A DNA stretch of 64,000 nt from an uncultured Gammaproteobacteria bacterium (GCA_964392925.1 CAYMRP010000003.1:50786-114785); one strand, 5' to 3'. Shown: positions 14,259 through 64,000, numbered from the stretch's first letter. Made by a program: numbers and translations. The notes: generated by a model not told the origin, from the letters alone.

Positions 14259-14270
14259 TTTGGAGAAAAT

Positions 14271-16240: not shown

Positions 16241-16241
16241 G

Positions 16242-18048: not shown

Positions 18049-18649
18049 TGTCAAAATTTGCGGTATAAGATCGGATATGGCGGCCAAGACCGCGGTTTAT
18101 TCAGGAGCAAAATTTTTAGGATTTAATTTTGCGTCCGGATCAAAGCGGAGAATAACGCCAGTGTTTGCCAAGCAGATAATTGATCAAATTAAAAATCAAG
18201 TTAATGTGGTTGGGGTATTTCAAAACCAGAAAGCAGAAGAAGTTAATAAAATTGCGGAGATGCTTGATTTAGATTATGTCCAACTTCATGGTGATGAGGA
18301 TGAGGAATATGTCAAAGAGATAGAAAGGCCTGTTATAAAAGTTTTGCAACTTGATCCGGATTTTAATATAACTACGGTTTTAAAAGAAATGAATAAATAT
18401 CAAGCCGAATATTTTTTATTGGATCGCAAAAAGCAAGGAAAAGGTAAAATGCTGGATACGAAAAGCCTAAGTGTTGTTTGTAAGGAGAAAAAAATATTTG
18501 TGGCCGGAGGATTAACTTGTGAGAATGTGGCTAATGTTATTAGCTCTGTAAATCCATTTGGGGTTGATGTGGCATCGGGAATTGAGACGAATCGAATAGA
18601 AGACACAGAGAAAATAAAATTATTTATGGAAAGGGCAAAAGGAGCATAG
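18041..18649 (+). CDS. trpF: Phosphoribosylanthranilate isomerase
   Basis: MINVKICGI N-terminus and …VQLHGDE…FVAGGL… Overlaps trpC by 8 nt. Confidence 0.85.
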   Translation: MINVKICGIRSDMAAKTAVYSGAKFLGFNFASGSKRRITPVFAKQIIDQIKNQVNVVGVFQNQKAEEVNKIAEMLDLDYVQLHGDEDEEYVKEIERPVIKVLQLDPDFNITTVLKEMNKYQAEYFLLDRKKQGKGKMLDTKSLSVVCKEKKIFVAGGLTCENVANVISSVNPFGVDVASGIETNRIEDTEKIKLFMERAKGA

Positions 18650-18685
18650 GAGAGTAGGTATTTTCTCGCTGCACTCGAAAAATAT

Positions 18686-19912
18686 ATGATGAAAAGGGGA
18701 AAGTTTGGACAATATGGTGGGCGGTATGTACCGGAGATGTTGATTCCGGCGCTTGAAGAATTGGAAACGGCTTATGATGAGGCGAAAAAAGATCCGGAAT
18801 TTAAGAATGAATTTCTGGACTTATTAAAGAACTTTTGTGGACGGCCAACACCGCTCACATATGCTGCAAATTTAACTAAGCTGTTAGGGGGAGCAAAAAT
18901 TTATTTAAAGAATGAAGGACTCAATCATACAGGAGCTCATAAAATAACTCATTGTGTTGGTCAGGGACTACTAGCTAAAAGAATGGGTAAGACAAGGATA
19001 ATTGCGGAAACTGGGGCTGGGCAGCATGGTTTGGCATCGGCGACTGTGGCGGCCAAACTGGGAATGAAATGTACTGTTTTTATGGGTGAAGTGGATTATA
19101 ACAGGCAGAGGCCAAATGCTTTTTGGATGGAACAACTAGGAGCTGAAGTAGTACCTGTTAAATTTGGATCAAGAACTTTGAAAGATGCTGTTAATGCAGC
19201 GATTAAAGACTGGATTGAAAATGTTGATGATTCTTATTATCTTTTGGGATCGGTTGTTGGGCCGCATCCTTATCCGACAATGACTCGGGATTTTCAAGCT
19301 ATTGTTTCAAAAGAAGTTAAAGAGCAAATACAAAAATTTGAGGATAGGTTACCAGATGTGGTGATAGCTTGTGTTGGCGGAGGCAGTAACGCAATGGGGA
19401 TTTTTTCAGGATTTCTAAGTGATAAAAATATAAGATTGATTGGAGTTGAAGCAGGTGGAAAAGGGAAAGGAATAGGCAATAACGCTGTCAGATTTGAGGG
19501 AGGAACTGTGGGGATTGTTGAAGGATATAAATCCTATTTTCTTCAGGACTCAGATGGACAGTTAAATAGAACTCATTCAATTTCGGCAGGGCTTGATTAC
19601 GCAGGTATAGGGCCGGAGTTAGCTGATTTGCATGATAAAAAACGGGTTGAGTTTGTTTCTGTGACAGATAAAGAAGTGATAGAAGCTTTTCAAACATTGG
19701 CACATTCGGAAGGGATCATTCCGGCTTTAGAATCAGCACATGCTGTGGCTCAGGCTATAAAAATTGCTCCAACTTTAAAAAAATCACAAGTGATTGTGGT
19801 GAACTTATCAGGTCGAGGAGATAAGGATTTATTTATAGTGGCTAAAGCAATGAAGGATAAGAAATTTAAGAAGTTTTTAGAGGAGTATTTGGGAGGTTAC
19901 GATCAGGATTAG
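18686..19912 (+). CDS. trpB: Tryptophan synthase beta chain
   Basis: PLP Lys motif LNHTGAHKITH, and GGGSNAMG. Confidence 0.95.
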   Translation: MMKRGKFGQYGGRYVPEMLIPALEELETAYDEAKKDPEFKNEFLDLLKNFCGRPTPLTYAANLTKLLGGAKIYLKNEGLNHTGAHKITHCVGQGLLAKRMGKTRIIAETGAGQHGLASATVAAKLGMKCTVFMGEVDYNRQRPNAFWMEQLGAEVVPVKFGSRTLKDAVNAAIKDWIENVDDSYYLLGSVVGPHPYPTMTRDFQAIVSKEVKEQIQKFEDRLPDVVIACVGGGSNAMGIFSGFLSDKNIRLIGVEAGGKGKGIGNNAVRFEGGTVGIVEGYKSYFLQDSDGQLNRTHSISAGLDYAGIGPELADLHDKKRVEFVSVTDKEVIEAFQTLAHSEGIIPALESAHAVAQAIKIAPTLKKSQVIVVNLSGRGDKDLFIVAKAMKDKKFKKFLEEYLGGYDQD

Positions 19913-19945
19913 GCGGTATTTTCTCGGCTTGCTCGAAAAGTATTT

Positions 19946-20680
19946 ATGAAATTGATGACACATGTAGTGGTGGGATACCCATCACTTAAAGAGACAGAGG
20001 ATTTAATTTTGCTAATGGATGAGGTTGGAGTAGATTATATAGAACTACAAATTCCATTCTCAGATCCGTTGGCCGATGGGCCGACAATTATGAAGGCCTG
20101 TGAAGAGTCTCTAAGAAATGGGACCAAAGTTGCTGATGCGTTTTTACTGGCATCAAAATTGAAGACTAAAACTAAAACCCCACTTTTATTTATGGCTTAT
20201 TTTAATACCGTCTTTCACTACGGCATTCAGAAGTTTTGTAAAGATGCAAAACGCGCCGGAATTGCCGGACTAATTGTGCCGGATTTTCCCCTTGAAGAGG
20301 AAGAAACAGAGCACTTTAATCAAATTCTAAAGCAGAATGGGCTATTAAATATAAAAGTATTGTCTCCTGCTTCAACAGAGGAGCGGATAAAAATGAATGC
20401 GGAAGTGGGGACCGGATTTGTATATTGCACAGCAAGGCAAGGAATCACCGGAGCCGAGAAAGGATTTGATCCGAAAGTGATTAAGTATCTAAAAACTGTT
20501 AAAAAACATTTTAAAATTCCGGTAGCATTAGGGTTTGGGATTTCAACTAAAGGACATATATCACAGATGGAAGGATTGGCTGATGTGGCAGTTGTTGGGA
20601 GCGCGATATTGGATATCATTAATTCGAATAGAAAAGAATATTTAAATAAAGTAAGAGACTTTTTGAAGGATCTGAGATAA
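19946..20680 (+). CDS. trpA: Tryptophan synthase alpha chain
   Basis: YIELQIPFSDPLADGPTI catalytic region and GFGIS. Confidence 0.9.
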   Translation: MKLMTHVVVGYPSLKETEDLILLMDEVGVDYIELQIPFSDPLADGPTIMKACEESLRNGTKVADAFLLASKLKTKTKTPLLFMAYFNTVFHYGIQKFCKDAKRAGIAGLIVPDFPLEEEETEHFNQILKQNGLLNIKVLSPASTEERIKMNAEVGTGFVYCTARQGITGAEKGFDPKVIKYLKTVKKHFKIPVALGFGISTKGHISQMEGLADVAVVGSAILDIINSNRKEYLNKVRDFLKDLR

Positions 20681-20695
20681 AATGAGGAAGATTAT

Positions 20696-21691
20696 ATGAA
20701 GAAAACAGTTTTGTCAGGAATAAGAGCTACAGGAAGATTGCATTTAGGTAACTATTTAGGGGCAGTTAAGGGAATGCTGGAGTTACAAGATAATCCAGAA
20801 TATGAAACATTCTATATGGTGGCGGATGTGCACACTATAACTACGCCATATAATATTGAGGAACTAAAGGTTAATAGACGGGAAGTTATTTTAGATTATC
20901 TGGCGGCAGGTCTTGATCCGGAAAGATCAGTTATATTCCAACAGGCAGAAGTTCCTGAGCATCTAGAGTTAGCATTTTATTTTTCATCGGCGGTAACTAT
21001 TGCGCGTATGCAACATTTACCGACATTTAAAGAAAAAGTTAAACAATATCCAGATAACGCGACGATGGCGCTTTTGAACTATCCAATATTAATGGCAGCT
21101 GATATTTTGATTTATAAAGCAGGACTGGTGCCTGTTGGAATCGATCAGGAGCCGCATTTGGAAGTTGCAAGGGTAATTGCAAATAATATGAATAATCTTT
21201 ATGGAACTGATTTTCCAGAACCGGTTAGGTTTGCCACAAAAGGAGAGTATGTGCCTTCTTTGACTGGTGAAGGGAAGATGAGTAAAACTGTAGAGGGAAG
21301 CTTTATAAATATTACGGATGATCTTGAGGTGATTAGAACAAAAGTTGCTAAATTACCAACAGATGCAGGGTCTGGGGTTTTAGGTGAGAATGGACCGGAA
21401 AAAGGAAGTCCTTTGCAGACAGTTTTGGCGTTTGTGGAATTGTTTCAGGGCAAGGAGAAGGCAGAGTTTTATAAAAAAATGTATATTAATGAAGGGATTA
21501 GATACGGTGACTTAAAAAGGGAGTTATCTGAGGCTATTTTTGACGAATTAAGACCACTACAGGAAAAAAGAAAAGAGCTTGAGAATAATCCTGAGTTTGT
21601 TGATAAGGTGATAAAAGAAGGGGCTGAAAAAGCGAGGGTTGTGGCGAGTAAGACATTAAGAGAAGTTAAGGAAAGAATGGGACTCACATAG
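20696..21691 (+). CDS. trpS: Tryptophanyl-tRNA synthetase
   Basis: Class I HIGH-region TGRLHLGNYLG, KMSKT, AADIL. 331 aa, typical bacterial TrpRS length. Confidence 0.9.
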   Translation: MKKTVLSGIRATGRLHLGNYLGAVKGMLELQDNPEYETFYMVADVHTITTPYNIEELKVNRREVILDYLAAGLDPERSVIFQQAEVPEHLELAFYFSSAVTIARMQHLPTFKEKVKQYPDNATMALLNYPILMAADILIYKAGLVPVGIDQEPHLEVARVIANNMNNLYGTDFPEPVRFATKGEYVPSLTGEGKMSKTVEGSFINITDDLEVIRTKVAKLPTDAGSGVLGENGPEKGSPLQTVLAFVELFQGKEKAEFYKKMYINEGIRYGDLKRELSEAIFDELRPLQEKRKELENNPEFVDKVIKEGAEKARVVASKTLREVKERMGLT

Positions 21692-46188: not shown

Positions 46189-46737
46189 ATGCAAAAAGTA
46201 AATCCTTGGAAAAAGTTATCTTCAAGAGCTGTTTATAAGAATGATTGGTTTTCTGTTCGCGAAGATGAAGTAGAAAAGCCGGGGAATAGGACTGGGGTTT
46301 ATGGAGTGGTTGAGACAGATCCGTCTGTTTTTATTGTGGCTATTAACGATCAAGAAGAAGTTTATTTAGTCGGGCTTTTTAGATATCCGGTTTCCCAGTA
46401 TAGTTTAGAAATTCCGGCTGGGAGTTCTGATGGAGAAGATCTACTTGAAGCCGCAAAGAGAGAATTGCTTGAGGAAGCCGGACTTAAAGCACTAAGGTGG
46501 GAGAAAATTGGGAGTTTCATACCGCTTAACGGAATAGCCAATGAAATAAGTAATATTTTTATGGCTAGGGATTTGGAGGAAACAGGCAGCGAACTCGATC
46601 CTAATGAAGGAATTATGGAAGTCAGAAAAGTGCCTTTTGAAAGAGTGTTTGATTTGGTAAGATCTGGGGAGATATCAGATGGGCAAACAATTTCAGCATT
46701 AACGTTGGCTAAGATCCATTTAGGAAAGTGGTCATGA
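46189..46737 (+). CDS. NUDIX hydrolase (ADP-ribose pyrophosphatase-like)
   Basis: Nudix box GSSDGEDLLEAAKRELLEEAGL. Confidence 0.75.
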   Translation: MQKVNPWKKLSSRAVYKNDWFSVREDEVEKPGNRTGVYGVVETDPSVFIVAINDQEEVYLVGLFRYPVSQYSLEIPAGSSDGEDLLEAAKRELLEEAGLKALRWEKIGSFIPLNGIANEISNIFMARDLEETGSELDPNEGIMEVRKVPFERVFDLVRSGEISDGQTISALTLAKIHLGKWS

Positions 46738-46776: not shown

Positions 46777-47973
46777 ATGATTCTATATGAATTTGAAGGA
46801 AAAAAGTTATTAATAGATGCCGGAATTGCAGTTCCCTCCTCGCAACTTATTAGCTCACTAGATGAGGAAGTTTCTTTACAATATCCGCTTGTTTTGAAGG
46901 CGCAAGTTTTATCAGGAAAAAGGGCGGATGCCGGTGGAATATTATTTGCTGAAAATGAAGAAGAGTATAGAAATGGGATTAAGAGGCTCTTGGACTCAGT
47001 TATAAATAAAGAAAAAGTAGAACAGGTTTTAGTTGAGGAGAAGGCAGAAATTGAGAAAGAGTATTATGTTTCAATTTCTTATAACACAGAAACCCGCGGA
47101 GCTGTTTTAACTTTATCTGAATCTGGGGGAACCGGTATCGAGGACAGAGAAGCAAATACGTATAAAGTATCAAGTGTTAAGTATCAAGCCGGCGAGGAAG
47201 CAGTTAAGTTTGATGAACTGGGCAAATTAGAGGGAGTAGATGGAGAGGTTATTAATGATTTAATTAAAATGTTTTTTGATCAGGATTGTTCGCTTTTGGA
47301 AGTTAATCCATTAGTTAAAACCAGATCAGGGGAGTGGATGGCTTTGGACGCAAAAGTAAAATTAGATGACTTTGCAAAACCGAGACACAAGGATGAGTGG
47401 GATTATTCTCCGAGATCAGCTCCAGGTCATACGCCTACCAGAGGCGAAATTGAAGCTAAAAAAATAGATGAAGGTGATTATAGAGGGACTGCTGGTTCTT
47501 CATATTTTGATATTGAGGGTGGTGATATCGCGGTTTTGTCATCCGGAGGGGGTGTTTCTTTGACAGCTTTGGATTCTCTAATTAATTACGGAGGAAAGCC
47601 AGCTAATTTTACTGAATATTCTGGGAATCCACCAAAAGAGAAGGTAGCAAAGCTAACTAAAGTTGTCCTAGATAAGCCTAATATTCATGGCCTTTGGGTT
47701 ATTGGGACTGTTGTTGCGAACTTTACTGATATTTACGAGACGCTATCGGGATTTATTGAAGGATTAAAAGAAACGGAAAAGTTACTGGGCAGGAAATTTG
47801 ATTTTCCAATTGTTATCCGCAGAGGAGGTCCTAGAGTAGAGGAGGCTTATGAGATGTTGAAGAACGTAAAAGAGTTTGATTTTCATTTGCAGGCTGGGGA
47901 GACTTCTATAGCGCAATCGGCGAAGACTATGGCAGAGCTTGCTAAGGAGTATGAATTAAGAATTAAGGGCTAA
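46777..47973 (+). CDS. ATP-grasp subunit, succinyl-CoA synthetase beta / ATP-citrate lyase small-subunit (AclB/CcsA)-like
   Basis: MILYEFEGKKLLIDAGIAVP N-terminus (SucC-like). 398 aa. Followed by an alpha-like subunit and a citrate-synthase-like gene. Confidence 0.7.
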   Translation: MILYEFEGKKLLIDAGIAVPSSQLISSLDEEVSLQYPLVLKAQVLSGKRADAGGILFAENEEEYRNGIKRLLDSVINKEKVEQVLVEEKAEIEKEYYVSISYNTETRGAVLTLSESGGTGIEDREANTYKVSSVKYQAGEEAVKFDELGKLEGVDGEVINDLIKMFFDQDCSLLEVNPLVKTRSGEWMALDAKVKLDDFAKPRHKDEWDYSPRSAPGHTPTRGEIEAKKIDEGDYRGTAGSSYFDIEGGDIAVLSSGGGVSLTALDSLINYGGKPANFTEYSGNPPKEKVAKLTKVVLDKPNIHGLWVIGTVVANFTDIYETLSGFIEGLKETEKLLGRKFDFPIVIRRGGPRVEEAYEMLKNVKEFDFHLQAGETSIAQSAKTMAELAKEYELRIKG

Positions 47974-47978
47974 GTATT

Positions 47979-48881
47979 ATGGGAAATAGATTATTAAAAA
48001 AGGATGCTAAATTAATAGGACAAGGGTTAACGGGGACTGAGGGGGCGAGGGCTTTGCCTAGGATGACTTCTTACGGCACAAAAATCGTGGCCGGAGTGAC
48101 ACCTGGCAAAGGTGGGCAGGAAGTGGAAGGGGTGCCGATATTTAACTCAGTTAAAGAGGCTGTTGAAGCAGTTGGGCCAGTCGATGGTACGGTTCAATTT
48201 GTCCCTCCGTTATTTGTTAAAGGAGCTGTTAAAGAAGCGATTGAGGCCGGATTAAAATTTATTTTAATCAGTGCGGAGAAAGTCCCAACTTCTGATGAGG
48301 CGTATATGTATGAACTAGCTGAGAATAATGGGGCGAGTATTATTGGTCCAAATTCGGTGGGACTTTTAAGTACTCATAATAGAATTAGATTAGGGTTAAT
48401 CGGGGGTTCTGATCCAGAGAAAGTATTTATGCCGGGGGAAATTGCGATTGTCTCTAAATCCGGATCAATGACGGCAGAGATTGGGCTTCATTTAAAAAAT
48501 AATGGTTTAGGAACATCATGGGCTGTTGGGATAGGCGGGGATATTGTGGAAGGAACTGATTTTGCGGATTTTTTACTTGAACTTGAGGATGATGCAAATA
48601 CGAAAGCCTCGGTCATTTTTGGAGAATTAGGGGGAACATATGAAGAGAAAGTGGGGGATTTAGTTAAAGCAGGCAAAATTACAAAACCTGTTGTGGCTTT
48701 GATCGCTGGAGACTTCACTATGAAATTACCTAATGAGGTTCAGTTTGGTCATGCAGGTGCTATTATTGAAGGAGAGAGAGGACTTCCTGACTATAAGCGG
48801 AAATTCTTACGAGAAGCGGGAGTGAAAGTGGCAAACTCGATTGATGAAATTGCGGAGCTTTTGAAGCAGTCTTTAAAATAA
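47979..48881 (+). CDS. CoA-binding subunit, succinyl-CoA synthetase alpha / AclA N-terminal (CcsB)-like, with phospho-His motif
   Basis: CoA-binding Rossmann (GLTGTEG…) and the conserved catalytic-His loop VQFGHAGAIIEG. Confidence 0.75.
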   Translation: MGNRLLKKDAKLIGQGLTGTEGARALPRMTSYGTKIVAGVTPGKGGQEVEGVPIFNSVKEAVEAVGPVDGTVQFVPPLFVKGAVKEAIEAGLKFILISAEKVPTSDEAYMYELAENNGASIIGPNSVGLLSTHNRIRLGLIGGSDPEKVFMPGEIAIVSKSGSMTAEIGLHLKNNGLGTSWAVGIGGDIVEGTDFADFLLELEDDANTKASVIFGELGGTYEEKVGDLVKAGKITKPVVALIAGDFTMKLPNEVQFGHAGAIIEGERGLPDYKRKFLREAGVKVANSIDEIAELLKQSLK

Positions 48882-48883
48882 AA

Positions 48884-49561
48884 ATGGCTATTACAATTAC
48901 ACATGTTGATGATGATGAAACTAAGCCGGCGCTTTTTGAGGAGCAAGATCTTTTGGAGTTAGCCCAGAAGATTTCATTTGCCGAATTGATTTTTGAGATG
49001 TTGACTGAGAGAAAGCCTTCTGAGGCAGAAGCTAAGCTGCTTAATTTAATTTTGAATTTATCAGCCGATCATGGACCTAATGCCCCGTCAGCAGTGGCGA
49101 CAATTGCAGCTACTAAAGAAGGCAAAACAATGGGTGAATCGGTTGGGGAAGGTATGGCGCAGATTGGTGATCGGCATGGCGGAGCAGGAGGGCCTTTGAT
49201 GGAATTGATGTACAGGATCAAGAACCAAGGGACAAGTATTAAGGGAGAAGTTGAAGATGTCTTAAAAGAGGGAAAAAGGATTCCGGGGATGGGTCATCGA
49301 GTCTATAAAGATATTGATCCGAGGGCGCAGTTGATTATGAAAACGGCAGTTGATAATGGAGTGGGTGAGGAATTTGTGAAGCTGGTGAATGAAATAAGAG
49401 ATGAGATTGAGAGACAGTCTGGTAAGAGCTTGCCGGTTAATATAGATGGAGCAATTGCTGCTGTTTTTTGCGGATTTGGCTTAAAGCCGGAATTTGGGAT
49501 TGCAGTATTCATAGTGGCGAGAGCTCCTGGGCTATGTGCTCATTTTATTAATAATTCCTAA
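48884..49561 (+). CDS. Citrate-synthase-like domain protein (citryl-CoA lyase / ACL C-terminal-like), apparently C-terminally short
   Basis: LNLSADHGPNAPSA…GPLMEL…GHRVYKDIDPRA…ARAPGLCAH are hallmark citrate synthase blocks. The protein ends 6 residues after the AH block. Confidence 0.65.
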   Translation: MAITITHVDDDETKPALFEEQDLLELAQKISFAELIFEMLTERKPSEAEAKLLNLILNLSADHGPNAPSAVATIAATKEGKTMGESVGEGMAQIGDRHGGAGGPLMELMYRIKNQGTSIKGEVEDVLKEGKRIPGMGHRVYKDIDPRAQLIMKTAVDNGVGEEFVKLVNEIRDEIERQSGKSLPVNIDGAIAAVFCGFGLKPEFGIAVFIVARAPGLCAHFINNS

Positions 49562-54124: not shown

Positions 54125-55387
54125 ATGGGGTTTGTGGCGGATTTACATATTCATTCAAGATTTTCTCAAGCTTGTTCGAAATATCTAACGATTCCAAATT
54201 TAGCACTGTGGGCCAAGTATAAAGGAATTGATTTAATGGGAACCGGAGATTGTTTGCATCCTTTATGGCATGCGGAATTGAGGCGGGATTTAAAAGAGAC
54301 GAAAGATGGTTATGAATATAACGGTATTAAATTTTTGCCGACAGTTGAAGTGTCGTGCATTTATAAACAAGGCGGAAGCGTAAGAAGAATTCATACTTTG
54401 ATTTTTTTACCGACTTTAGAATCAGCAGAAATGTTATCTAAAGTCTTAGCCAAAATGGGAAAAAATTTAGTGTCGGATGGAAGGCCGATACTCGGAATGT
54501 CATCTAAGGAGTTGTGTGAAGTAGTGTTTGGGGTAGAGAAAAAAGCCTTGATAATTCCGGCCCATATTTGGACTCCGTGGTTTTCTTTGTTTGGTTCAGA
54601 GTCAGGGTATGATTTTTTGGAAGAATGTTTTGGCGGGTATTCTGATCAAATTTATGCTGTTGAAACTGGTTTATCGAGCGAACCTTTAATGAATTGGCGG
54701 GTTTCACAGCTTGATAATAAGGCAATCGTATCGTTTTCAGATGCACATTCATTACCCCGACTAGGAAGGGAAGTGACGATATTTAAAGGCGAGCCGACTT
54801 TTGAACAACTAAGAAATAATTTGATTAAGAGGCAGATTGTGGAGACGGTTGAATTTTTTCCTGAAGAGGGGAAGTATCATTATTCAGGGCATCGCAAATG
54901 CGGAGTTGTTTATGACACAGCAGAACTTAAAGCGAGAGGAGAGATCTGTCCTGTTTGTGGGAGGAAATTGACATTGGGGGTATTGAATAGGACTGAGGAG
55001 TTAGCTGATCGGGGGACGCAGGAAATAAGAGTGATAAATCAAGGAGGAGTAATAAGTTCTGGGGTATTTCCCGATAGAGCGGGGTTTAGGATGCTGGTGC
55101 AGCTTGAGGAAATTATTGCAGCAAGTATGGGGTTTTCGGTTGCTTCGCAGAAAGTTCAAAAAGAATATTTAAGACTTGTAACAACACTGGCTCCAGAATT
55201 ATTAATACTCACTAAACTTTCAATCGAGGATATTGAAAAAAATGCTGGTGCTAGAATTGCTGAGGGAGTCAAGAGAGTTCGGGAAGGCATGGTTGCAATT
55301 AGGCCAGGGTTTGATAATACTTATGGCAAAGTTAGGATTTGGAGTGATGAAGAGAAAGCTCAGAATAAACAAATTGAATTGTTTTAA
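54125..55387 (+). CDS. PHP-domain protein with Zn-finger, endonuclease Q-like
   Basis: N-terminal ADLHIHSRFSQA PHP motif. CPVCGRKL zinc-finger-like element. About 420 aa, as for EndoQ. Not confirmed. Confidence 0.4.
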   Translation: MGFVADLHIHSRFSQACSKYLTIPNLALWAKYKGIDLMGTGDCLHPLWHAELRRDLKETKDGYEYNGIKFLPTVEVSCIYKQGGSVRRIHTLIFLPTLESAEMLSKVLAKMGKNLVSDGRPILGMSSKELCEVVFGVEKKALIIPAHIWTPWFSLFGSESGYDFLEECFGGYSDQIYAVETGLSSEPLMNWRVSQLDNKAIVSFSDAHSLPRLGREVTIFKGEPTFEQLRNNLIKRQIVETVEFFPEEGKYHYSGHRKCGVVYDTAELKARGEICPVCGRKLTLGVLNRTEELADRGTQEIRVINQGGVISSGVFPDRAGFRMLVQLEEIIAASMGFSVASQKVQKEYLRLVTTLAPELLILTKLSIEDIEKNAGARIAEGVKRVREGMVAIRPGFDNTYGKVRIWSDEEKAQNKQIELF

Positions 55388-58173: not shown

Positions 58174-58965
58174 ATGGAGTTACTAATATATATTTTAGTT
58201 TTTACATTTTTAGGCAGTATTGCTTCATTGGTAGGAGGGATTTTTTTGCTGTCAAAAAAAGAACTGGTTGGTAAGATTTCGCATTATTTGTTTTCATTTG
58301 CGGCTGGAGTTTTATTGGGTACGGCTTTTTTTGATCTGCTTCCCGAGGCATTTGCTGAGATTGAACATTTAGCTGAAGAAGGAATTATTGTAGAGACAAA
58401 TATATTTCTTTGGACATTTTTAGGAATTATTGGCTTCTTCTTTTTAGTTAGATTTTTGCACTGGTTTCATCATCATGACGATCATTTTAAAGATGAGCCA
58501 AAACAGACAGTGTCGCTTATTGTAGTCGGAGATACTGTACATAATTTTATAGATGGAATGATAATTGCGGCTTCATTTTTTGTAAGTATTCCGCTGGGTA
58601 TTCTTACAGCTATTGCGGTGGCAATTCATGAGATACCACAAGAGATAGGAGATTTTGCAATTTTAATTAAGAGAGGTCTGCCTAGGAAAAAAATCATTCA
58701 GATTAATTTGATAAGTGCGGCGGCAGCAATGGTAGGAGCGATGCTGGTGTTTATTTTAGGAGAATCAGTCAAGGCTATGCTGCCGATGTTTTTGGCACTG
58801 ACTGCAGGATTCTTTATCTACATAGCGACGGCCGATTTAATCCCTGAGATTCATAAAGAAGATAACCAAAAGGTGGCTTTCATGGAAGCTTTACTACTCG
58901 TAATTGGAGCGCTTACTGTTTATGGTTTGGCAATAATTTTAGAAAGCGCGAATCTTCATGGATAG
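58174..58965 (+). CDS. ZIP-family divalent metal transporter (ZupT-like)
   Basis: HNFIDGMIIAASF and HEIPQEIGDFAIL metal-binding TM motifs. Confidence 0.75.
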   Translation: MELLIYILVFTFLGSIASLVGGIFLLSKKELVGKISHYLFSFAAGVLLGTAFFDLLPEAFAEIEHLAEEGIIVETNIFLWTFLGIIGFFFLVRFLHWFHHHDDHFKDEPKQTVSLIVVGDTVHNFIDGMIIAASFFVSIPLGILTAIAVAIHEIPQEIGDFAILIKRGLPRKKIIQINLISAAAAMVGAMLVFILGESVKAMLPMFLALTAGFFIYIATADLIPEIHKEDNQKVAFMEALLLVIGALTVYGLAIILESANLHG

Positions 58966-59512
58966 TAAAAAAAATTTAAATTCTGATAATCAGATAATAT
59001 CGGCGGTTGATAGTGCAGGTAACTTTATTCGTTATATTTCGAAGGAAGATGGACATACAGGTGAAGGCATTCATCATTTAGCAATTACAGTTTTTATTTT
59101 TAATTCAAAAGGGGAGCTACTTTTACAAAAAAGGAAACATAAGGTATTTGATAATTTTTGGGATAACACAGCGTCAACTCATCAGCTGCATTTGGAAAAT
59201 GGCCATGACGAGAGTGACAAGGAGGCAACTTTACGAACACTGAAAAGAGAGTATGGGATAGAGAATGTTGAACTTGAGAATTTGGGAGGATTTAATTATT
59301 TCGAGAAAATTGGTGGGCTTTGTGAGAATGAGTTTTGCAAATTGTTGATTGGAATTTATGATGGTGAAGTAAATTTAAATCCTGAGGTTGGATATTCGTA
59401 TAAGTGGATTTCAAAAAAAGATTTTATGAGAGAGCTTGAGGAGATACCTGGGGAATATACACCATGGTGTAAAGCAGCAGTAAAGATTCTTCATGATAAA
59501 GGTATTTTGTAA
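58958..59512 (+). CDS. Isopentenyl-diphosphate isomerase type 1-like NUDIX protein, Cys67-to-Ser variant (paralog A)
   Basis: Aligns to E. coli Idi: His ligands kept (IHHLAIT, STH). ENE (Glu114/116), Tyr and Trp161 equivalents present. WTNSVCGHP is WDNTASTHQ here. Confidence 0.55.
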   Translation: MDSKKNLNSDNQIISAVDSAGNFIRYISKEDGHTGEGIHHLAITVFIFNSKGELLLQKRKHKVFDNFWDNTASTHQLHLENGHDESDKEATLRTLKREYGIENVELENLGGFNYFEKIGGLCENEFCKLLIGIYDGEVNLNPEVGYSYKWISKKDFMRELEEIPGEYTPWCKAAVKILHDKGIL

Positions 59513-60051
59513 TGGATCTTGAAGAGGAGTTGGTTGATATTGTTGATGAGCGAAATATTGTTATCGGGCAATCTTCCAGAAGAGAAGCGCATGCTAGAGG
59601 GCATATTCACCGGGCGCTATCCGTATTAGTTTTAAATTCTAAAGGCGAGATATTACTTCAAAAGAGATCTGCTAATAAATCGGTCCATCCCATGTCTTGG
59701 GATTTATCAACCTCAGAGCATGTGTTGAGTGGAGAGAGTTATGAAGATGCGGGATTTAGATCTGTAAAAGAAGAACTCGGTGTTGAGGCAGTTGTAACAA
59801 AAGCTACGGAAATAACTTTGCAGAAAAGGAAATATCAGGTTAAGGGGGAGACGGTTTTTGAGAATGAAATTGTTCTGATGTTAAGGGCGATTCATGACGG
59901 TCCTTTTGAAATAGATCCAGAAGAGGTTAATGAAGTTAAATTTTTTAAAGTGGAAGAAATTGAGCAGATGGTAAAAGGCGGTGAAGACTTCACTACTTGG
60001 TTTTTGGACGAATGGCTGAATGTAAAAAAAGTAGTTAGTTCAATCACATAG
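59512..60051 (+). CDS. IDI-1-like NUDIX protein, also Cys-to-Ser (paralog B)
   Basis: HRALSVLVLNSKGEILLQKR…WDLSTSEHV…ENEIV. Same substitution pattern as paralog A. 1-nt overlap (TAATG). Confidence 0.5.
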   Translation: MDLEEELVDIVDERNIVIGQSSRREAHARGHIHRALSVLVLNSKGEILLQKRSANKSVHPMSWDLSTSEHVLSGESYEDAGFRSVKEELGVEAVVTKATEITLQKRKYQVKGETVFENEIVLMLRAIHDGPFEIDPEEVNEVKFFKVEEIEQMVKGGEDFTTWFLDEWLNVKKVVSSIT

Positions 60052-60300
60052 CTCAATCCGGCTGACGGGAAACGTTAACTCCGGATAAGTGGCTGATTTG
60101 GCGATGCTAGTTGGTATCGATCGAGTAACCTCCAGGTTCCGTTCCGGTAGTTGATCGGGGCGAAGTAAAAATGAGGCTAATTTTGGTACTTCGAATCCTC
60201 TAATTGTAACTTCTCCTGAATCTGAGACGGTAAAGCGGCGGTGTCTCTTTACTATTCTTGATTGAGAAGGAGAGGTGTCGATTTCAGGACTTATTGCCAT
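60040..60300 (-). CDS. Possible small ORF (86 aa) translationally coupled to the MVD-like gene; coding status uncertain
   Basis: Its ATG overlaps the MVD-like TGA (ATGA). No domain. The region is locally GC-elevated and may instead be a structured 3' UTR. Confidence 0.2.
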   Translation of the reverse strand: MAISPEIDTSPSQSRIVKRHRRFTVSDSGEVTIRGFEVPKLASFLLRPDQLPERNLEVTRSIPTSIAKSATYPELTFPVSRIELCD

Positions 60301-61277
60301 CAGAAAAGATGTGTCTTGGACAATCTTACTCCGTCTCCTGGATAATTTACAATAATGTTTTTGACTTCCGAGAGCTCCTTTAAGTTTGCTTTTAAACTTT
60401 CAACATGGTTCTTTTCAACAATTAAATGGACATCCTGGCCGGTGTTGACTGTGAAATAAACAGGAATTCCCTCTTCGCGCCATTTTTTGCAGAGCTTCAT
60501 TAATAAAAGTGAATTGGGCATAAGGTAGATTAAGGCTGGTTTTTGGGTAATATAAATCGAGTGGAGTTCGAGAGCTTCTGATTCAATTAGTTCGCCGAAT
60601 TCTTTAAAGTTTTTTTCTGTTATTAATTTCTTAAGTAGTTCGTTTTTAGCTTTCATTCCTTCTACTCTAATGTTCATGAAAGGGGAGGTGTTGGCTCCTT
60701 CATGGGCATCTGAAGTTGAGATTTCTTTTCTGCCTTCTGAAACAACTGCTACGACATCTGCGATCTCCCAATGGTCTTTTTCAAATATAGTTTTAGCATA
60801 GGAGGTTTCAGAAGTGTCGCCATCTAACCATTCTACAATTCCTGCAGGAATTGAGCGGCAGGCTGATCCGGAGCCTTGTCTGGCAAGTATTGATAATTCT
60901 GATTCAGATAATTCAAGACCAGCAGCATTTGATCCGGCTACTGTTAGGGCTGCAAATCCTGAAGCGGAAGAAGAGAGGCCGGTTCCGGTGGGGAAAGAAT
61001 TTTTTGAAACTACTTTAGCGAAAGTATTTATACCGGCAATTTTTCTAATTCTGTCTAAATGTTTTATAACTTTTGCGGCTTCTTTTTCTCTTTTTTCGTC
61101 ATTTATAGTTATATCATCGGCGGTTAAGTTTTCGTCAAATTCTACAGTGGTGGTAGTTAAAAGATTTGATAAGGACATGGAGATGCTGCCGTTCATCGGC
61201 AGTCTTAAGGTTTCGTCTTTGCGGCCCCAATATTTGGTGAAGGCAATATTGGATGGAGCTATAGCTGTTGATTTCAT
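60300..61277 (-). CDS. Diphosphomevalonate decarboxylase-family protein (MVD/PMD/M3K-like) with non-canonical catalytic-Asp region
   Basis: N-terminal APSNIAFTKYWGRKD, and GSGSACRS. Where MVDs have (Y)FT(M)DAGPN, this protein has VYFTVNTGQDV (Asp->Asn in my alignment). Confidence 0.65.
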   Translation of the reverse strand: MKSTAIAPSNIAFTKYWGRKDETLRLPMNGSISMSLSNLLTTTTVEFDENLTADDITINDEKREKEAAKVIKHLDRIRKIAGINTFAKVVSKNSFPTGTGLSSSASGFAALTVAGSNAAGLELSESELSILARQGSGSACRSIPAGIVEWLDGDTSETSYAKTIFEKDHWEIADVVAVVSEGRKEISTSDAHEGANTSPFMNIRVEGMKAKNELLKKLITEKNFKEFGELIESEALELHSIYITQKPALIYLMPNSLLLMKLCKKWREEGIPVYFTVNTGQDVHLIVEKNHVESLKANLKELSEVKNIIVNYPGDGVRLSKTHLF

Positions 61278-61771
61278 ATTAGGAATCCGTATTCTTTAAG
61301 AGTTATTTTAGATGATTCTGAGAGATCTTCAAAGACTTCTTTTAATTCTTCCCGAGTAAAGAATCTTAGTTCGTCAGTTTCTTCGGGATTAAATTTAAAA
61401 GGGCCATTTGACTGAAGAGTGTAAAGCTTAGTCATTGTTTTGTGAGCAGGATCATCTATTATCATTCTTTTGAGAAAGGCAGGTTTGGCGCTGAGTCTTA
61501 ACTCTTCAAGGATTTCTCTTTCTGCGGCTTCGTCATAGGTTTCTTCTTCACCGACATGTCCGCCTACTGCATTCGACCATTTTCCTGGGTTACTATCTTT
61601 TTTGACACTTCTTTTTTGAAGCATCACTTGTCCTTTCTCGTTAAATACTAAAACTGAAATAGTCCTATGAAGCAGTTTCTTGGTATGGGCTTCCTTTCTG
61701 GGCATGTAATTCATGACGTAATCGTTTTCGTCAACAACAATTACTAATTCTTCGGGATCTGTGTAATTCAT
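61274..61771 (-). CDS. NUDIX hydrolase, IDI-like (paralog C; Cys position is Gly)
   Basis: HRTISVLVFNEKGQVMLQKR…WSNAVGGHVGEEETYDEAAEREILEE is a NUDIX box embedded in an IDI-like N-terminal layout. ATGA overlap with the MVD-like gene. Confidence 0.5.
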   Translation of the reverse strand: MNYTDPEELVIVVDENDYVMNYMPRKEAHTKKLLHRTISVLVFNEKGQVMLQKRSVKKDSNPGKWSNAVGGHVGEEETYDEAAEREILEELRLSAKPAFLKRMIIDDPAHKTMTKLYTLQSNGPFKFNPEETDELRFFTREELKEVFEDLSESSKITLKEYGFLI

Positions 61772-62754
61772 TGCTCAAGTCTAACTCCATCTGTATTTAC
61801 TTCAACTTTTAAAACTTGGCCGCCGGCGTTTTGAATTGCTTGCTGAACTGCCTTGATTCTATTTTCGGGAGCAAGAGCAATCATACAATCGCCGCCGCCG
61901 GCACCCGATAATTTGGCACCAAAAGCTCCGGCATTTCGAACTGCATTGATAATTGAGGAGAGTTTATTGGTGGAAACTCCCAATTGTTCAAGCAGTGTTT
62001 GATTCGAATTCATTAATTCGCCGAGTTTTTTCAGATCATTATGAGCAAAAGCCGCTTTTGCTTCTTCAACAATTTCTTCCATGTTGTTATAAATTTCGTT
62101 TAACTCTGCTTGTTTATTCTCGAAGCGGGCTTTGACTTCTTTGACTATTGTGGCGGTATCGGCTTTGACTCCGGTGTAGCCAACAATGAGTGGTAGATGG
62201 CTAATAGCTAATGGTTGAATGGTTTTGCCGCCGGCTACAAAGTATAAAGTTTCGCCGTATATTGCGGCTGCTAAATCAAAGCCAGATCCTAATCCCTGGA
62301 CATCCAATACCGTTTGATAAGCAAGGTCAAAAATTTCTTTCTGAGTTAGTTCTGGTTTAAATATTTCTGCCAATGCTTTGACCGTACAAACTGCGGATGC
62401 AGAAGAGGAGCCAAAGCCAAAAGTAGACTTAAATTGGGCAACAGTTTCTAATTGAATTCCAGCATGTGGGGGGATAGCAGCGGCGTATTTTTCAAAGAAA
62501 TTTTTAGTTGCGAATTCGACAAATTTTGCACCTTTTGGAATTTCGTCTTCTCCGAGATGAGACATCAGTTTATTGTAATTTTTAATATCAACGTCGGGGG
62601 CATTTAATTTAAAAACTGGTTCATCGTTATAGGAAGCGGTTAGAGAGAGCCTTTGATTTACGGAAGTTACAATACATGGCTTACCGTAAACAACGGCATG
62701 TTCACCAAAAAGCATTAATTTTCCGGGAGCTGAAACTGTAATCTTTTTGTCCAT
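61768..62754 (-). CDS. GHMP kinase, mevalonate-kinase-like paralog (candidate phosphomevalonate kinase or variant)
   Basis: SAPGKLMLFGEHAVVYGKP (MVK motif 1), GFGSSSA (motif 2), GSGFDLAAA (catalytic Asp), KLSGAGGGDC (motif 3). Not ERG8-type. Confidence 0.6.
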   Translation of the reverse strand: MDKKITVSAPGKLMLFGEHAVVYGKPCIVTSVNQRLSLTASYNDEPVFKLNAPDVDIKNYNKLMSHLGEDEIPKGAKFVEFATKNFFEKYAAAIPPHAGIQLETVAQFKSTFGFGSSSASAVCTVKALAEIFKPELTQKEIFDLAYQTVLDVQGLGSGFDLAAAIYGETLYFVAGGKTIQPLAISHLPLIVGYTGVKADTATIVKEVKARFENKQAELNEIYNNMEEIVEEAKAAFAHNDLKKLGELMNSNQTLLEQLGVSTNKLSSIINAVRNAGAFGAKLSGAGGGDCMIALAPENRIKAVQQAIQNAGGQVLKVEVNTDGVRLEQ

Positions 62755-62755
62755 A

Positions 62756-63700
62756 TTAAATAATTCCTGTTTCTGAAATCTGAACTGAATAGTACTTTAA
62801 ATTATTTTCCTTGGCAAATTCTATAAGTATATTTATGTTTTTATGAAAGGCTAAAATCATTCCTGATCCTTTTTTAATTCCTCCAGCTCCAGTTATTTTA
62901 GCGGCTCCTTTTAAGTTCTCGATTTTTGTAATGATATCACGGGTTGTTTCACTAACGACTCCCAAACTTTCTAAATTAGATTCCGATTGTTTAATAATTT
63001 TAAATAATTGAGACTCAGTATTGTTTAATAATGCGTCTTTTAATTGATGTGCTAGAGCTTCCTGACTGTTGATAATTTTATTAAATAAATGTTTGTTTTG
63101 TTTAGCAAAATTTGAAACATGTTCCACCATGTCAGATGTTTTTTCAAGAGGCTTGCCTGAATCGATCAATAGAAATTTTAAAGCAGATTTAGTAGAGATT
63201 CTAGAATAGTCCTCACCTTTTCTAAACCAAATAAGTCCACCATAGACAATTATAGTGTTATCTCCGCCAGAGGGATTTCCTTGAAATATTTTTTCACCCT
63301 CATAAACTAATTGATTTAGTGTTTCGAGGTCACAATTAACATTCAAAAATTTTAGCAGAGCTGAGGTGAAGACTGCGCAAAAAGCGGCGGAGGATCCAAG
63401 GCCTGAACCGATTGGAAGATCATTGTTAAATTTGATTGTGTAGTTTGGAATTGAGGAAAGAGCGAATTTTTTGGTGATTAATTTTTCTAGATTGATTTGG
63501 AATTTTTCGATTGCATCATCATGCTGAATTATGCCAAGGATTTGTTTTTTTTCTGATGAATAGATTCTACCTGTAAATCTTAAATTTATTGCAGCGAGGA
63601 TAGCAGGTTTGCCATAAACGACGCTGTGTTCGCCGATCAGGTGAATTTTTCCGGGGGCTGAAACTTTAATAATATTAGAGGGGTTTGAATTTGATTCCAT
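62756..63700 (-). CDS. Mevalonate kinase-like GHMP kinase
   Basis: KVSAPGKIHLIGEHSVVYGKP, GSGLGSSAA, SGGDNTI (catalytic Asp), KITGAGG. Start taken at MESNSNPSNII. The track ORF extends to 63745 and would overlap the next gene by 71 nt. Confidence 0.7.
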   Translation of the reverse strand: MESNSNPSNIIKVSAPGKIHLIGEHSVVYGKPAILAAINLRFTGRIYSSEKKQILGIIQHDDAIEKFQINLEKLITKKFALSSIPNYTIKFNNDLPIGSGLGSSAAFCAVFTSALLKFLNVNCDLETLNQLVYEGEKIFQGNPSGGDNTIIVYGGLIWFRKGEDYSRISTKSALKFLLIDSGKPLEKTSDMVEHVSNFAKQNKHLFNKIINSQEALAHQLKDALLNNTESQLFKIIKQSESNLESLGVVSETTRDIITKIENLKGAAKITGAGGIKKGSGMILAFHKNINILIEFAKENNLKYYSVQISETGII

Positions 63701-63974
63701 ATTCAATGATGTCGGCGGCCTGAGGTTTGCGGGATCTTCTGACAACTGAAATAACTTTAAGTCCGATTTTTAAATCTGATTCTTCGCAGTCAATTATTTG
63801 AGAGGGTACTTTAGTGCCGTTTTCAAGTTCAATTATACCGGCAAAATATGGTGCTTGATACTCAAAACCAGAGGGAGCGGTGAAGATTTTTGTCCATACT
63901 AAAAGCTTACCTTTTTGAGAAAGGTTTTGATTTAATTTCTTAGTATCCCGCCAATGTTTTACTGGACTGCTCAT
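63675..63974 (-). CDS. DUF35 OB-fold protein (thiolase/HMG-CoA-synthase scaffold family), lacking the N-terminal Zn-ribbon
   Basis: GKLLVWTKIFTAPSGFEYQAPYFAGIIELENGTKVPSQIIDCEESDLKIGLKVISVV aligns closely to archaeal DUF35 OB folds (…VYSFTVVHRAPPGFEPPYIVALVELEEGPRVMTNIVDCDPEEVKIGMEVEVVF). Confidence 0.65.
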   Translation of the reverse strand: MSSPVKHWRDTKKLNQNLSQKGKLLVWTKIFTAPSGFEYQAPYFAGIIELENGTKVPSQIIDCEESDLKIGLKVISVVRRSRKPQAADIIEYGIKFKPL

Positions 63975-63981
63975 ATAATTT

Positions 63982-64000
63982 AAATTGTTAAATTGTTAAA
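63982..64000. repeat. AATTGTTA octamer tandem repeat at the window edge (related to the 33747 microsatellite)
   Basis: aattgttaaattgttaaa is read directly and continues off the window. Confidence 0.7.

Follow-up and report, generated by a model that had tools for sequence, protein, structure and literature searches.

A Microgenomates mevalonate operon that probably follows the classical kinase, kinase, decarboxylase route by divergent enzymes

[quoted passage not shown] The window would hold the distal half of an operon that comprises HMG-CoA reductase (HMGR), HMG-CoA synthase (HMGS), thiolase, DUF35, two kinases (K1 and K2), a Nudix protein and a decarboxylase homolog (MVD), transcribed divergently from genes for trans- and cis-prenyl diphosphate synthases. 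In the pathway that we propose, archaeal-type thiolase, HMGS and DUF35 would form a channelling complex that delivers HMG-CoA, from which HMGR would make mevalonate; K1 would then carry out the mevalonate kinase step, K2, as a slowly evolved MVK-like PMK, would yield mevalonate 5-diphosphate, and the MVD homolog, in which Asn replaces the usual active-site Asp, would phosphorylate and decarboxylate this intermediate to IPP. One of two nearby Nudix paralogs, NUDb or NUDc, would convert IPP to DMAPP, with which the FPP/UPP synthases encoded alongside would make the cell-wall lipid carrier. The chemistry would be that of the classical eukaryote/Gram-positive route, and the ancestry appears to adjoin the route of MVK, phosphomevalonate decarboxylase (PMD) and isopentenyl phosphate kinase (IPK), which takes the place of K2 and the Asn-type MVD in relatives that are syntenic in other respects.

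The original prediction had described five minus-strand genes at the end of the window, and all of them were verified on that strand at the positions first noted. These are DUF35 (63675..63974; 99 aa, PF01796 at 45.5 bits), K1 (62756..63700; 314 aa from the ATG used by gene callers, the mechanical ORF beginning at a TTG at 63745), K2 (61768..62754; 328 aa), the in-operon Nudix gene (61274..61771; 165 aa, PF00293 at 69 bits) and the MVD-family decarboxylase (60300..61277; 325 aa), such that the gene order K1-K2-MVD is also the order of the reactions. Additionally, we found a sixth, small minus-strand ORF (60040..60300; 86 aa) without a family match, the coding status of which is doubtful. It sits in the spacer between convergent genes, and two other assemblies annotate it as a gene; it is only 68% identical to its copy in one related locus (L002), compared with 92-97% for its neighbours, and another (L004) has no space for it. 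Spacing is tight: DUF35 overlaps K1 by 26 nt, 1 nt separates K1 from K2, the next two junctions (K2/Nudix and Nudix/MVD) overlap by 4 nt each, and MVD overlaps the small ORF by 1 nt.

Genes for thiolase and HMGS had been predicted just past position 64000, and both were located there in identical or related DNA. A locus with 100% identity to the window over 3968 nt (L001) carries the thiolase, whose stop codon lies 11 nt past the window end, with DUF35 directly downstream, whilst HMGS is present in L002 and L004, each of which has HMGR-HMGS-thiolase-DUF35. Relatives at 92.6% nt identity show the arrangement HMGR-HMGS-thiolase-DUF35-K1-K2-Nudix-MVD, with prenyl-diphosphate synthases flanking. 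From species-representative genomes we fetched 80 related loci (the scan matched 302), which include Daviesbacteria, Levybacteria, Gottesmanbacteria and others; the full operon is found in most of these 80 loci and the cluster is the Microgenomates norm. The L001 thiolase is archaeal-type, with an HDCF motif, and the HMGS passes archaeal HMGS models. For DUF35, the best PDB match is the corresponding protein of the M. thermolithotrophicus thiolase/HMGCS complex (6esq_E/6et9, E=2.4e-12), and as this match spans residues 47-128 only, the N-terminal part is missing from the window DUF35; in the related loci inspected the protein is likewise ~98-102 aa. The claim that a lower-MVA operon lies beside an archaeal-type DUF35 is upheld: the protein has the PF01796 match and the 6esq_E homology, and its gene has thiolase adjoining it in L001 and HMGS nearby in L002 and L004. 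This OB-fold-only protein is presumed to be the scaffold of a thiolase/HMG-CoA synthase complex.

We read K1 as a mevalonate kinase of a divergent, CPR type. It exceeds the cut-off of the MVK model TIGR00549 (194.4 bits vs 163.05) and retains GKxxxxGEH, GLGSSAA and the equivalents of Glu193 and Asp204 (ExGEKxFxGNPSGGDN). The MVK catalytic set (Lys13, His20, Ser146, Glu193 and Asp204 in rat numbering) is complete in K1, and in 77 K1 orthologs GKIHLIGEH, GLGSSAA and EGEKIFQGNPSGGDN are nearly invariant. The family is monophyletic with MVKs (100/100 bootstraps), and all cluster variants carry it, even the ones that lack K2. Moreover, K1 is the sole GHMP kinase of K1-MVD-IPK clusters, and in two independent assemblies with flanks syntenic to the window (L007 and L095) it is fused to an Asp-type MVD, with IPK next.

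The second kinase had been described as MVK-like, with an MVK-type signature. This holds for motif I, which reads GEHAVVYG in K2 and GEYAV in four genuine PMKs (E. faecalis, S. aureus, Listeria and Streptomyces), and for the HMM scores, which are above the cut-off for TIGR00549 (223.6 bits vs 163) and below it for both the Gram-positive PMK model TIGR01220 (115.5 bits vs 165.7) and Arch_PMK NF040957 (93.3 bits vs 500). The tree and the other motifs, however, are PMK-like. In a crude NJ tree based on a small set of references (the same four PMKs amongst them), the bipartition of K2 plus genuine, GHMP-type PMKs versus K1 plus MVKs received 84/100 bootstraps; the position of the second kinase relative to orthodox MVK clades had been set beforehand as a test, and K2 falls outside them, beside the PMKs. 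K2 and the PMKs have in common SGAGGGDC (motif III), PGKL and the loss of the Glu193 equivalent, which is the Mg-binding Glu of MVK, and in BLAST against PMKs K2 was the highest-scoring group (~78-80 bits; other groups 27-49). From this we infer that K2 is an MVK-like phosphomevalonate kinase.

The distribution of IPK points in the same direction. An amino-acid-kinase-type IPK had been reported as missing from the window, which was borne out by Pfam scans of 20 mid-sized window ORFs, where none was detected, and by tblastn and HMM searches built from six IPKs against the six-frame window, which returned noise only. Furthermore, none of the best 120 IPK homologs lies on a 142,157-bp contig, the longest recorded for the window's own proteins. 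Across 69 informative loci, K2 and a cluster IPK never occur together: the latter is found in 0/62 loci with K2 vs 4/7 without (Fisher p=4e-5). K2 is missing from five loci that have IPK after MVD, the cluster IPK in that position scoring 196.8 bits with NF040647 (cut-off 120). As such, the grouping of K2 with PMKs, its PMK-specific motifs and its alternation with IPK make MVK, PMK, DMD the simplest reading, and tell against the non-canonical MVA route of the original prediction.

A modified decarboxylase had been anticipated, and the active-site Asp of MVD is indeed replaced by Asn, the motif being YFTVNTGQDVHL where the canonical form is FTxDAGPN (NTGQD for DAGPN). The Asn in YFTVNTGQD aligns without ambiguity with FTMDAGPN of E. 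faecalis and YTLDAGPN of Anaerolinea, and the changed residue corresponds to D283 of S. epidermidis, D282 of E. faecalis and D281 of S. solfataricus. MVD scores above the cut-off of the diphosphomevalonate decarboxylase model TIGR01240 (256.4 bits vs 171.35) and under that of the PMD model NF040704 (182.5 bits vs 475). Its best PDB match (282 bits; E. faecalis MDD, 213 bits) is 6n0x/6n0y, which we take to be the Anaerolinea thermophila PMD, a Chloroflexi phosphomevalonate decarboxylase. The structure of A. thermophila PMD has been solved, and the active-site Asp is described as conserved throughout DMD/PMD/MBD (PMC9254496). At the residues reported to bind the diphosphate, Tyr18, Lys21, Ser139, Ser141 and Ser192 (PMC3857490, Table 4), MVD has Tyr, Arg, Ser, Ser and Thr, the Arg standing where Lys is conserved in DMDs, and it also has the PMD-like Arg27, Thr192 and His196 (markers from PMC3857490 and PMC11052028). 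Asn occupies the catalytic position in 9/142 scorable representative clusters; it is found in 60/63 K2-linked MVD loci, and 5/5 IPK-linked loci have Asp. With 99/100 bootstraps, MVDs of the Asn type group in a derived clade of their own that is tied to K2, which suggests a change of substrate, and we infer that MVD is an Asn-type diphosphomevalonate decarboxylase.

The description of the in-operon Nudix protein as IDI-like did not hold. It is of the Nudix hydrolase type, with an intact Nudix box (GHVGEEETYDEAAEREILEE), and the catalytic IDI positions are not kept, C67/E114/E116/W161 being G/H/T/S. It scores under the IDI cut-offs (NF002995, 83.6 vs 127; TIGR02150, 69.4 vs 105.8), with 76.8 for YfcD. 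The gene is present in only a minority of loci, and L002 has a non-homologous Nudix paralog instead (blastn gap 61278-61784). Judged by its sequence, this is a YfcD-like hydrolase in a variable accessory slot and not an isomerase. Two IDI-1-like Nudix paralogs, NUDc (58958..59512) and NUDb (59512..60051), lie on the plus strand, convergent with the operon and mostly outside the region originally flagged (60040-64000). Both are under the cut-offs of TIGR02150 (NUDc 71.5 and NUDb 71.6 vs 105.8) and NF002995 (77.1 and 95.6, respectively, vs 127). Read at E. coli IDI positions H25, H32, C67, H69, Y104, E114, E116 and W161, the signature is H H S H L E E W in NUDb and H H S H Y E E W in NUDc, in which Cys67 alone is changed; both proteins keep all of the His25/His32/His69/Glu114/Glu116 ligands and have Ser for Cys67. 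Ser, Ala, Asp or Ile at position 67 co-varies with Cys at 113 ('CENE'). A 92%-identical homolog of NUDb is named 'IDI type 1' by JGI, and NUDc, the most widely conserved Nudix beside the cluster, appears to be the best isomerase candidate.

Several features count against the classical reading, namely the HMM results and GEH motif of K2, the PMD-like character of MVD and its Asn change, the loss of Cys67 from both IDI-like proteins, and the stand-alone IPK genes of other Microgenomates genomes, in view of which an IPK may lie outside the window. Some of these would suit a flux of the Haloarchaea/Chloroflexi type, in which K1 would form mevalonate 5-phosphate, MVD would convert it to isopentenyl phosphate for an IPK from another part of the genome, and K2 would be a second mevalonate, regulatory or salvage kinase. 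The nearness of MVD to Anaerolinea PMD, with its Arg27, Thr192 and His196, and the score of K2 above the MVK cut-off agree with this, as do stand-alone IPK genes elsewhere in other Microgenomates genomes and the report that the occurrence of IPK in CPR seems not to depend on the other MVA genes (Hoshino & Gaucher, PMC6107057). We nevertheless regard it as unlikely, given the mutual exclusion of K2 and cluster IPK, the tie of the derived Asn-type clade to K2, the derived motifs that K2 has in common with PMKs, and the lack of an IPK both within the 64-kb window and, among the best 120 homologs, on any contig of 142,157 bp.

The fact that K2 and IPK are positional alternates could also mean a new step order, with K1 again forming mevalonate 5-phosphate, MVD acting as a PMD, and K2 being a GHMP-fold isopentenyl phosphate kinase; the PMD resemblance of MVD and the HMM profile of K2, which is no clean PMK, fit this too. 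It is rather improbable in view of the mevalonate-family scaffold and PMK-specific motifs that K2 keeps and its place before MVD in the operon; moreover, the MVD active site is altered exactly where K2 appears, which agrees better with a new MVD substrate than with the old one. To our knowledge, a GHMP-fold IP kinase is without precedent, and this counts against K2 as IPK. Still less probable, indeed very doubtful, is that the Asn-type MVD is a 3-kinase only (like mevalonate-3-kinase or SsoDMD D281T/V), with decarboxylation occurring spontaneously or by another protein in a Thermoplasma-like split. The Asp that separates decarboxylases from M3K is missing here and D309N abolishes the activity of P. 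torridus MBD, but S. solfataricus DMD D281N is still a decarboxylase (PMC9254496). The cluster has a single MVD homolog, far under the M3K (38 vs 440) and MBD (64 vs 560) cut-offs, and the window holds no IPK to finish such a route; on these same three observations the complete Thermoplasma-type pathway (M3K, M3P5K, MBD, IPK) was rejected.

The classical MVK, PMK, DMD reading involves a gene set already known for CPR/Microgenomates, where MVK, PMVK and DPMD with an archaeal AACT were catalogued in 2018 (Hoshino & Gaucher, PMC6107057); the taxa are the same and there is no system-level difference. Term searches of the main text of that paper returned no DUF35, Asp-to-Asn change, local K2/IPK alternation or Cys67 loss; biochemistry is not included in it, and the literature searched holds no assay of any enzyme from this clade. 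The enzymes look unusually archaic, and the route is most likely an ordinary one of kinase, kinase and decarboxylase. With the archaeal thiolase/HMG-CoA synthase/DUF35 complex (PDB 6ESQ/6ET9) the operon has the gene triad in common, as well as a homologous DUF35 OB fold, although in this bacterial host the DUF35 is shortened (99 vs 130 aa) and the complex is a predicted one; the operon thiolase also shares the HDxF motif of archaeal ACATs (PMC12960953). As in Gram-positive mvaK1-mvaD-mvaK2-fni, there are three GHMP-superfamily enzymes with the same proposed MVK, PMK, DMD sequence, and K2 is sister to Gram-positive PMKs, with GGGDC in common. In contrast to that system, the genes run K1-K2-D; K2 (328 aa) is MVK-like, with GEH rather than GEY, and scores under the PMK HMM cut-off; Asn, Arg and His take the places of Asp, Lys21 and Met196 in the decarboxylase; the candidate isomerases resemble type 1, not type 2; and an upper pathway of archaeal type includes DUF35. 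The Thermoplasma-type pathway likewise involves MVD-family proteins in which parts of the DMD reaction are missing or put to another use. Finally, the Haloarchaea/Chloroflexi pathway of MVK, phosphomevalonate decarboxylase and IPK (Dellas 2013, PMC3857490) is linked to the window by Chloroflexi PMD, the closest solved structure to MVD, and by syntenic Microgenomates sister loci with K1, Asp-type MVD and IPK, whereas the window itself has K2, no IPK and an MVD of the derived Asn-type clade.

Six tightly packed ORFs were called on the minus strand between positions 60040 and 63974 of the window, and genes were assigned to families by Pfam and NCBIfam profile searches scored against curated cut-offs. 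These assignments bear out the lower mevalonate-pathway operon that the original prediction placed here. A DUF35 gene (63974..63675; 99 aa, matching PF01796) is followed by the first GHMP kinase, K1 (63700..62756; 314 aa, counted from the gene callers' ATG), the second, K2 (62754..61768; 328 aa), a Nudix gene (61771..61274; 165 aa) and a gene for an MVD-family decarboxylase (MVD; 61277..60300; 325 aa). Both K1 (194.4 bits) and K2 (223.6 bits) passed the cut-off of 163 for the mevalonate kinase (MVK) model TIGR00549, and K2 fell below the Gram-positive phosphomevalonate kinase (PMK) model (115.5 bits vs a cut-off of 165.7) and the archaeal one (93 bits vs 500). MVD passed the diphosphomevalonate decarboxylase (DMD) model (256.4 vs 171) and scored below the models for phosphomevalonate decarboxylase (PMD; 182.5 vs 475) and the Thermoplasma-type enzymes MBD (64 vs 560) and M3K (38 vs 440). 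The sixth ORF (60300..60040; 86 aa) fills the ∼260-bp spacer between MVD and the convergent gene NUDb (59512-60051), which, like the neighbouring NUDc (58958-59512), lies on the plus strand, converges on the operon and resembles type 1 IPP isomerases. This ORF is a called gene in other assemblies; its copy in the related locus L002 is 68 % identical vs 92–97 % for the neighbours, it is absent from a second related locus, L004, and it probably does not represent a conserved protein. Rfam and tRNA scans of the window returned two tRNAs only, both distant from the locus, whilst scans of 58500-64000 yielded 18 promoter-like sites (13.2±3.1 in shuffled sequence, hence not clearly beyond expectation) and 2 terminator-like sites (4.2 expected from shuffling).

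The prediction that thiolase and HMG-CoA synthase (HMGS) genes lie just past position 64000 was upheld by related sequences. A Logan contig (L001) that matches 3968 nt of the window without a single difference reaches 1042 nt past its edge and carries a thiolase gene whose stop codon lies 11 nt beyond position 64000, and whose product has the motifs CASGG and HDCF; the archaeal ACAT motif is HDxF (PMC12960953). HMGS was found in L002, which is 92.6 % identical to the window at the nucleotide level over the operon, and in L004, both of which hold the entire unit of HMGR, HMGS, thiolase, DUF35, K1, K2, Nudix and MVD. In these two loci the unit is flanked upstream by UPP synthase and trans-prenyl diphosphate synthase genes and downstream by two Nudix genes, Zip and MFS (all in <- orientation), a downstream order that matches the synteny of the window. 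The L002 HMGS scored above the archaeal HMGS models (495.8 vs 244 and 436 vs 353) and the thiolase above NF004720 (487.8 vs 420), whilst the HMGR, of the NADPH class I type, lay slightly under its cut-off (435.9 vs 441.8). The best PDB match of the DUF35 protein was 6esq_E, its DUF35 counterpart in the thiolase/HMGCS complex of M. thermolithotrophicus (E=2.4e-12); as this match is confined to residues 47-128 of 6esq_E, the CPR protein is a version reduced to the OB fold.

The named homologs of K1 belong to Levybacteria and Daviesbacteria, and when species-representative genomes were scanned with a K1 alignment, the best 80 of the 302 matching stretches came nearly all from Microgenomates MAGs. 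Clustering of CPR mevalonate genes with a cis-prenyltransferase gene has been described (Hoshino & Gaucher, 2018; PMC6107057), and IPK (isopentenyl phosphate kinase) homologs are also present in CPR/Microgenomates (PMC6107057). The locus is thus a mevalonate operon of the kind usual in Microgenomates, a further instance of a gene cluster that is widespread and already published, and as such the claim of a new, non-canonical mevalonate route is to be dropped.

Additional genes of the window were noted. Three adjacent plus-strand genes (46777-49561) encode a SucC-like protein with a citrate-binding domain and a SucD-like protein, together citryl-CoA synthetase-like, and a citryl-CoA lyase-like protein (NF004869, 159 bits vs a cut-off of 212); they could provide a two-step ATP-citrate cleavage giving acetyl-CoA to the mevalonate pathway. 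A tryptophan biosynthesis-like run (14241-21691, plus strand), recognised from IGPS, PRAI and the alpha chain of tryptophan synthase, is notable for a small-genome CPR bacterium. A 420-aa TIGR00375-family protein (54125-55387, plus strand; 148 bits, below its cut-off), the relatives of which carry the Pfam label MJ0043_C, is conserved a few genes away from the operon in many loci.

The two kinases were compared with MVK, PMK and DMD/MDD references from annotated E. faecalis, S. aureus, Listeria, Streptomyces and Natrinema records, with M. mazei MVK added from a PDB alignment. All MVK catalytic residues are retained in K1, and the K1 family was monophyletic in a neighbour-joining tree (100/100 bootstraps), where K2 and the PMKs were split from K1 and the MVKs in 84/100 bootstraps. 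K2 was the group closest to archaeal MVKs (138 bits) and also the one closest to PMKs (about 78–80 bits vs 27–49 for others). With the PMKs it shares motif III (SGAGGGDC; GAGGGGC in MVKs and GAGGIKxGSG in K1), PGKL and the absence of a Glu at the position equivalent to Glu193, and in motif I it keeps GEH where PMKs show GEY. The MVK signature originally reported for K2 is therefore real in motif I, but this is a single motif, with motif III and the loss of Glu193 being PMK-like, and K2 groups with PMKs rather than inside the orthodox MVKs. Judged on sequence, the best reading of K2 is that of an MVK-like PMK which has diverged little.

Genes in all related loci were mapped by BLAST against the L002 proteins, revealing a prevailing cluster of HMGR-HMGS-AACT-DUF35-K1-K2-(Nudix)-MVD (AACT being the thiolase). 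K2 is missing from five loci (L007, L027, L040, L055 and L076), in which K1 and MVD are followed by a 262-268-aa amino-acid-kinase-family protein, identified in L055 as IPK by a curated model (196.8 bits vs 120). In L007 (10001-12709) K1 is fused to an MVD with the canonical catalytic Asp (Asp-type) in one 637-aa protein, with IPK next to it, and the same fusion followed by IPK is present in an independent assembly (L095, 5087-7795); as the flanks in both assemblies are syntenic with the window, the fusion constitutes a cassette replacement of K1-K2-Nudix-MVD. Four other proteins of K1::MVD length were found among representatives (P0274, P0276, P0325 and P0413). When the tally was restricted to loci with at least 2.5 kb following K1, 62 had K2 alone, 4 had IPK alone, 3 had neither and none had both (Fisher p=4e-5). 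K1 thus appears to be the constant first kinase, with K2 and IPK being the predicted two alternative ways of adding the second phosphate; in the IPK clusters K1 is the sole GHMP kinase, and it is fused there to the enzyme that acts next. In a tree of HMGS and AACT the IPK-type loci were scattered, with L007 sister to the closest relatives of the window, which indicates that the lower cassette has been exchanged or sorted repeatedly.

Other arrangements were also observed. Five Roizmanbacteria-like loci (L064, L066, L068, L075 and L082) have HMGR-HMGS-AACT-DUF35-K1 followed by UPP synthase; as K2, MVD and IPK were all missing within 10 kb, their later steps must be encoded elsewhere or differ. 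A Gottesmanbacteria locus (L046, 9989-12829) holds K2 together with an Asp-type MVD (FTLDAGPT) and may represent a halfway stage between the K2 and IPK cassettes. A bacterial record of unreliable-looking taxon label (L057, 1-6519) contains a thiolase, two Nudix genes, K1-like and K2-like kinases, an MDD that is canonical throughout (signature KRSRMD) and, as its third GHMP kinase, a degenerate protein of 310 aa that scores 41.7 bits to MVK.

The best solved relatives of MVD were 6n0x, which we take to be the Anaerolinea thermophila PMD, and 6n0y (282 bits), with the E. faecalis MDD behind (213 bits). A further entry, 6n0z, carries N-to-K and H-to-M changes relative to 6n0x. A structure of the A. 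thermophila PMD exists (PMC9254496). At specificity markers (Table 4 of PMC3857490, and the rule 'Lys of DMD, His of PMD' from PMC11052028) MVD has Tyr18, Arg21, Arg27, Ser139, Ser141, Thr192 and His196, some of which are DMD-like and others PMD-like. Lys21 was rejected as a DMD/PMD discriminator in CPR, as IPK-linked MVDs also carry Lys or Arg. The active-site Asp (S. epidermidis D283, E. faecalis D282, S. solfataricus D281) is Asn in MVD, whose motif reads FTVNTGQD vs the canonical FTxDAGPN. Asn is present in 60/63 K2-linked MVDs and Asp in 5/5 IPK-linked ones, whilst the 150 best representative clusters of the family from 1.84 billion proteins gave 9 Asn, 132 Asp and 1 Thr. The Asn-type MVDs form one clade (99/100), which is nested in a wider group with the Asp-type sequences of CPR and the Anaerolinea PMD; this whole group is split off from the Gram-positive MDDs (100/100). 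Compensation by the Asp at +4 (NTGQD) was rejected, as Asn occurs there too in 13/60 Asn-type sequences.

The Nudix genes were aligned to E. coli IDI. The in-operon gene keeps His25, His32, His69 and an intact Nudix box, and has Gly, His, Thr and Ser at Cys67, Glu114, Glu116 and Trp161; with these four residues replaced, its proposed IDI-like nature did not hold up, and it is by its residues a predicted hydrolase-type accessory gene and no isomerase. It occurs in a minority of loci only, and the same slot is filled by differing paralogs: the window's (61278-61784) and the non-homologous copy of L002 (11917-12429) form the only part of the operon without DNA homology between the two. NUDc and NUDb keep every metal ligand and Glu116, with Ser at Cys67. 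In the window and its orthologs in L002-L085, NUDc proteins with the canonical Cys67 (WxNSxCGHP) have V or M at 113, whilst those with Ser, Ala, Asp or Ile at 67, the window's included, have Cys113 ('CENE'), which could be a relocated catalytic thiol. A fourth Nudix gene (46189-46737, plus strand; NudE-like, below its cut-off) is not IDI-like, showing YDSYPAEL at the IDI positions.

Overall, we consider it probable that the operon follows the classical sequence of MVK, PMK and DMD, in which an archaeal-style thiolase/HMGS/DUF35 complex and HMGR would feed K1 (MVK), followed by K2 (PMK), MVD acting as DMD and an IDI-1-like isomerase. As MVD looks PMD-like and is without the Asp, three rivals jointly account for roughly a quarter of the probability: an MVD that works as a PMD alongside a distant IPK, a K2 that is an isopentenyl phosphate kinase, or an MVD that is a kinase only. 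With regard to an IPK, none of the amino-acid-kinase type was found in the window, in line with the original prediction, and none of the 120 best IPK homologs listed lay on a contig of the length recorded for the window's own (142,157 bp); the K2/IPK exclusivity is cluster-local, with stand-alone IPK genes occurring elsewhere in other Microgenomates genomes. A Thermoplasma-type pathway was rejected on the M3K and MBD scores far under cut-offs, the single MVD homolog and this lack of an IPK in the window.

The missing Asp is reported to be shared by every DMD, PMD and MBD and absent from the non-decarboxylating M3K (PMC9254496), and according to PMC7414129 it orients the 3-OH and stands near a metal ion. 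In PMC9254496, SsoDMD turns into a kinase with D281T or D281V and retains decarboxylase activity with D281N, whilst D309N inactivates the P. torridus MBD. As D281N keeps activity among the reported Asp mutants, Asn would be compatible with a working DMD, though unusual. We think it improbable that K2 and the Asn-type MVD are not classical, either with a PMD-like MVD acting on mevalonate 5-phosphate and K2 as a GHMP-fold IPK, or with MVD as a kinase only or a mechanistically altered decarboxylase. In a softer version, these enzymes may be living, dual-specificity intermediates on the way from MVK to PMK and from PMD to DMD; if so, they would make the origin of the classical pathway directly testable.

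The remaining value of the locus is evolutionary and enzymological. The literature searched contained neither enzyme assays of this operon's enzymes nor a description of the local K2/IPK alternation, the Asn-type clade or the Cys67/Cys113 pattern, all three of which merit an enzymologist's attention; the same genomes also bear on how essential the 'invariant' Asp is. An origin of PMK from MVK, and of DMD from PMD, has been proposed (PMC9254496, PMC11052028). Syntenic Microgenomates carry either MVK, MVK-like PMK and Asn-type decarboxylase or MVK, Asp-type decarboxylase and IPK, and these two cassettes, together with an Asn-type clade nested among PMD-like sequences, offer a natural system in which this proposal can be put to the test. 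An MVK-like K2 fits the duplication of MVK through which PMK has been proposed to arise (PMC9254496), and our reading of K2 as a PMK agrees with the published assignment of the second kinase of the CPR cluster as PMVK (PMC6107057).
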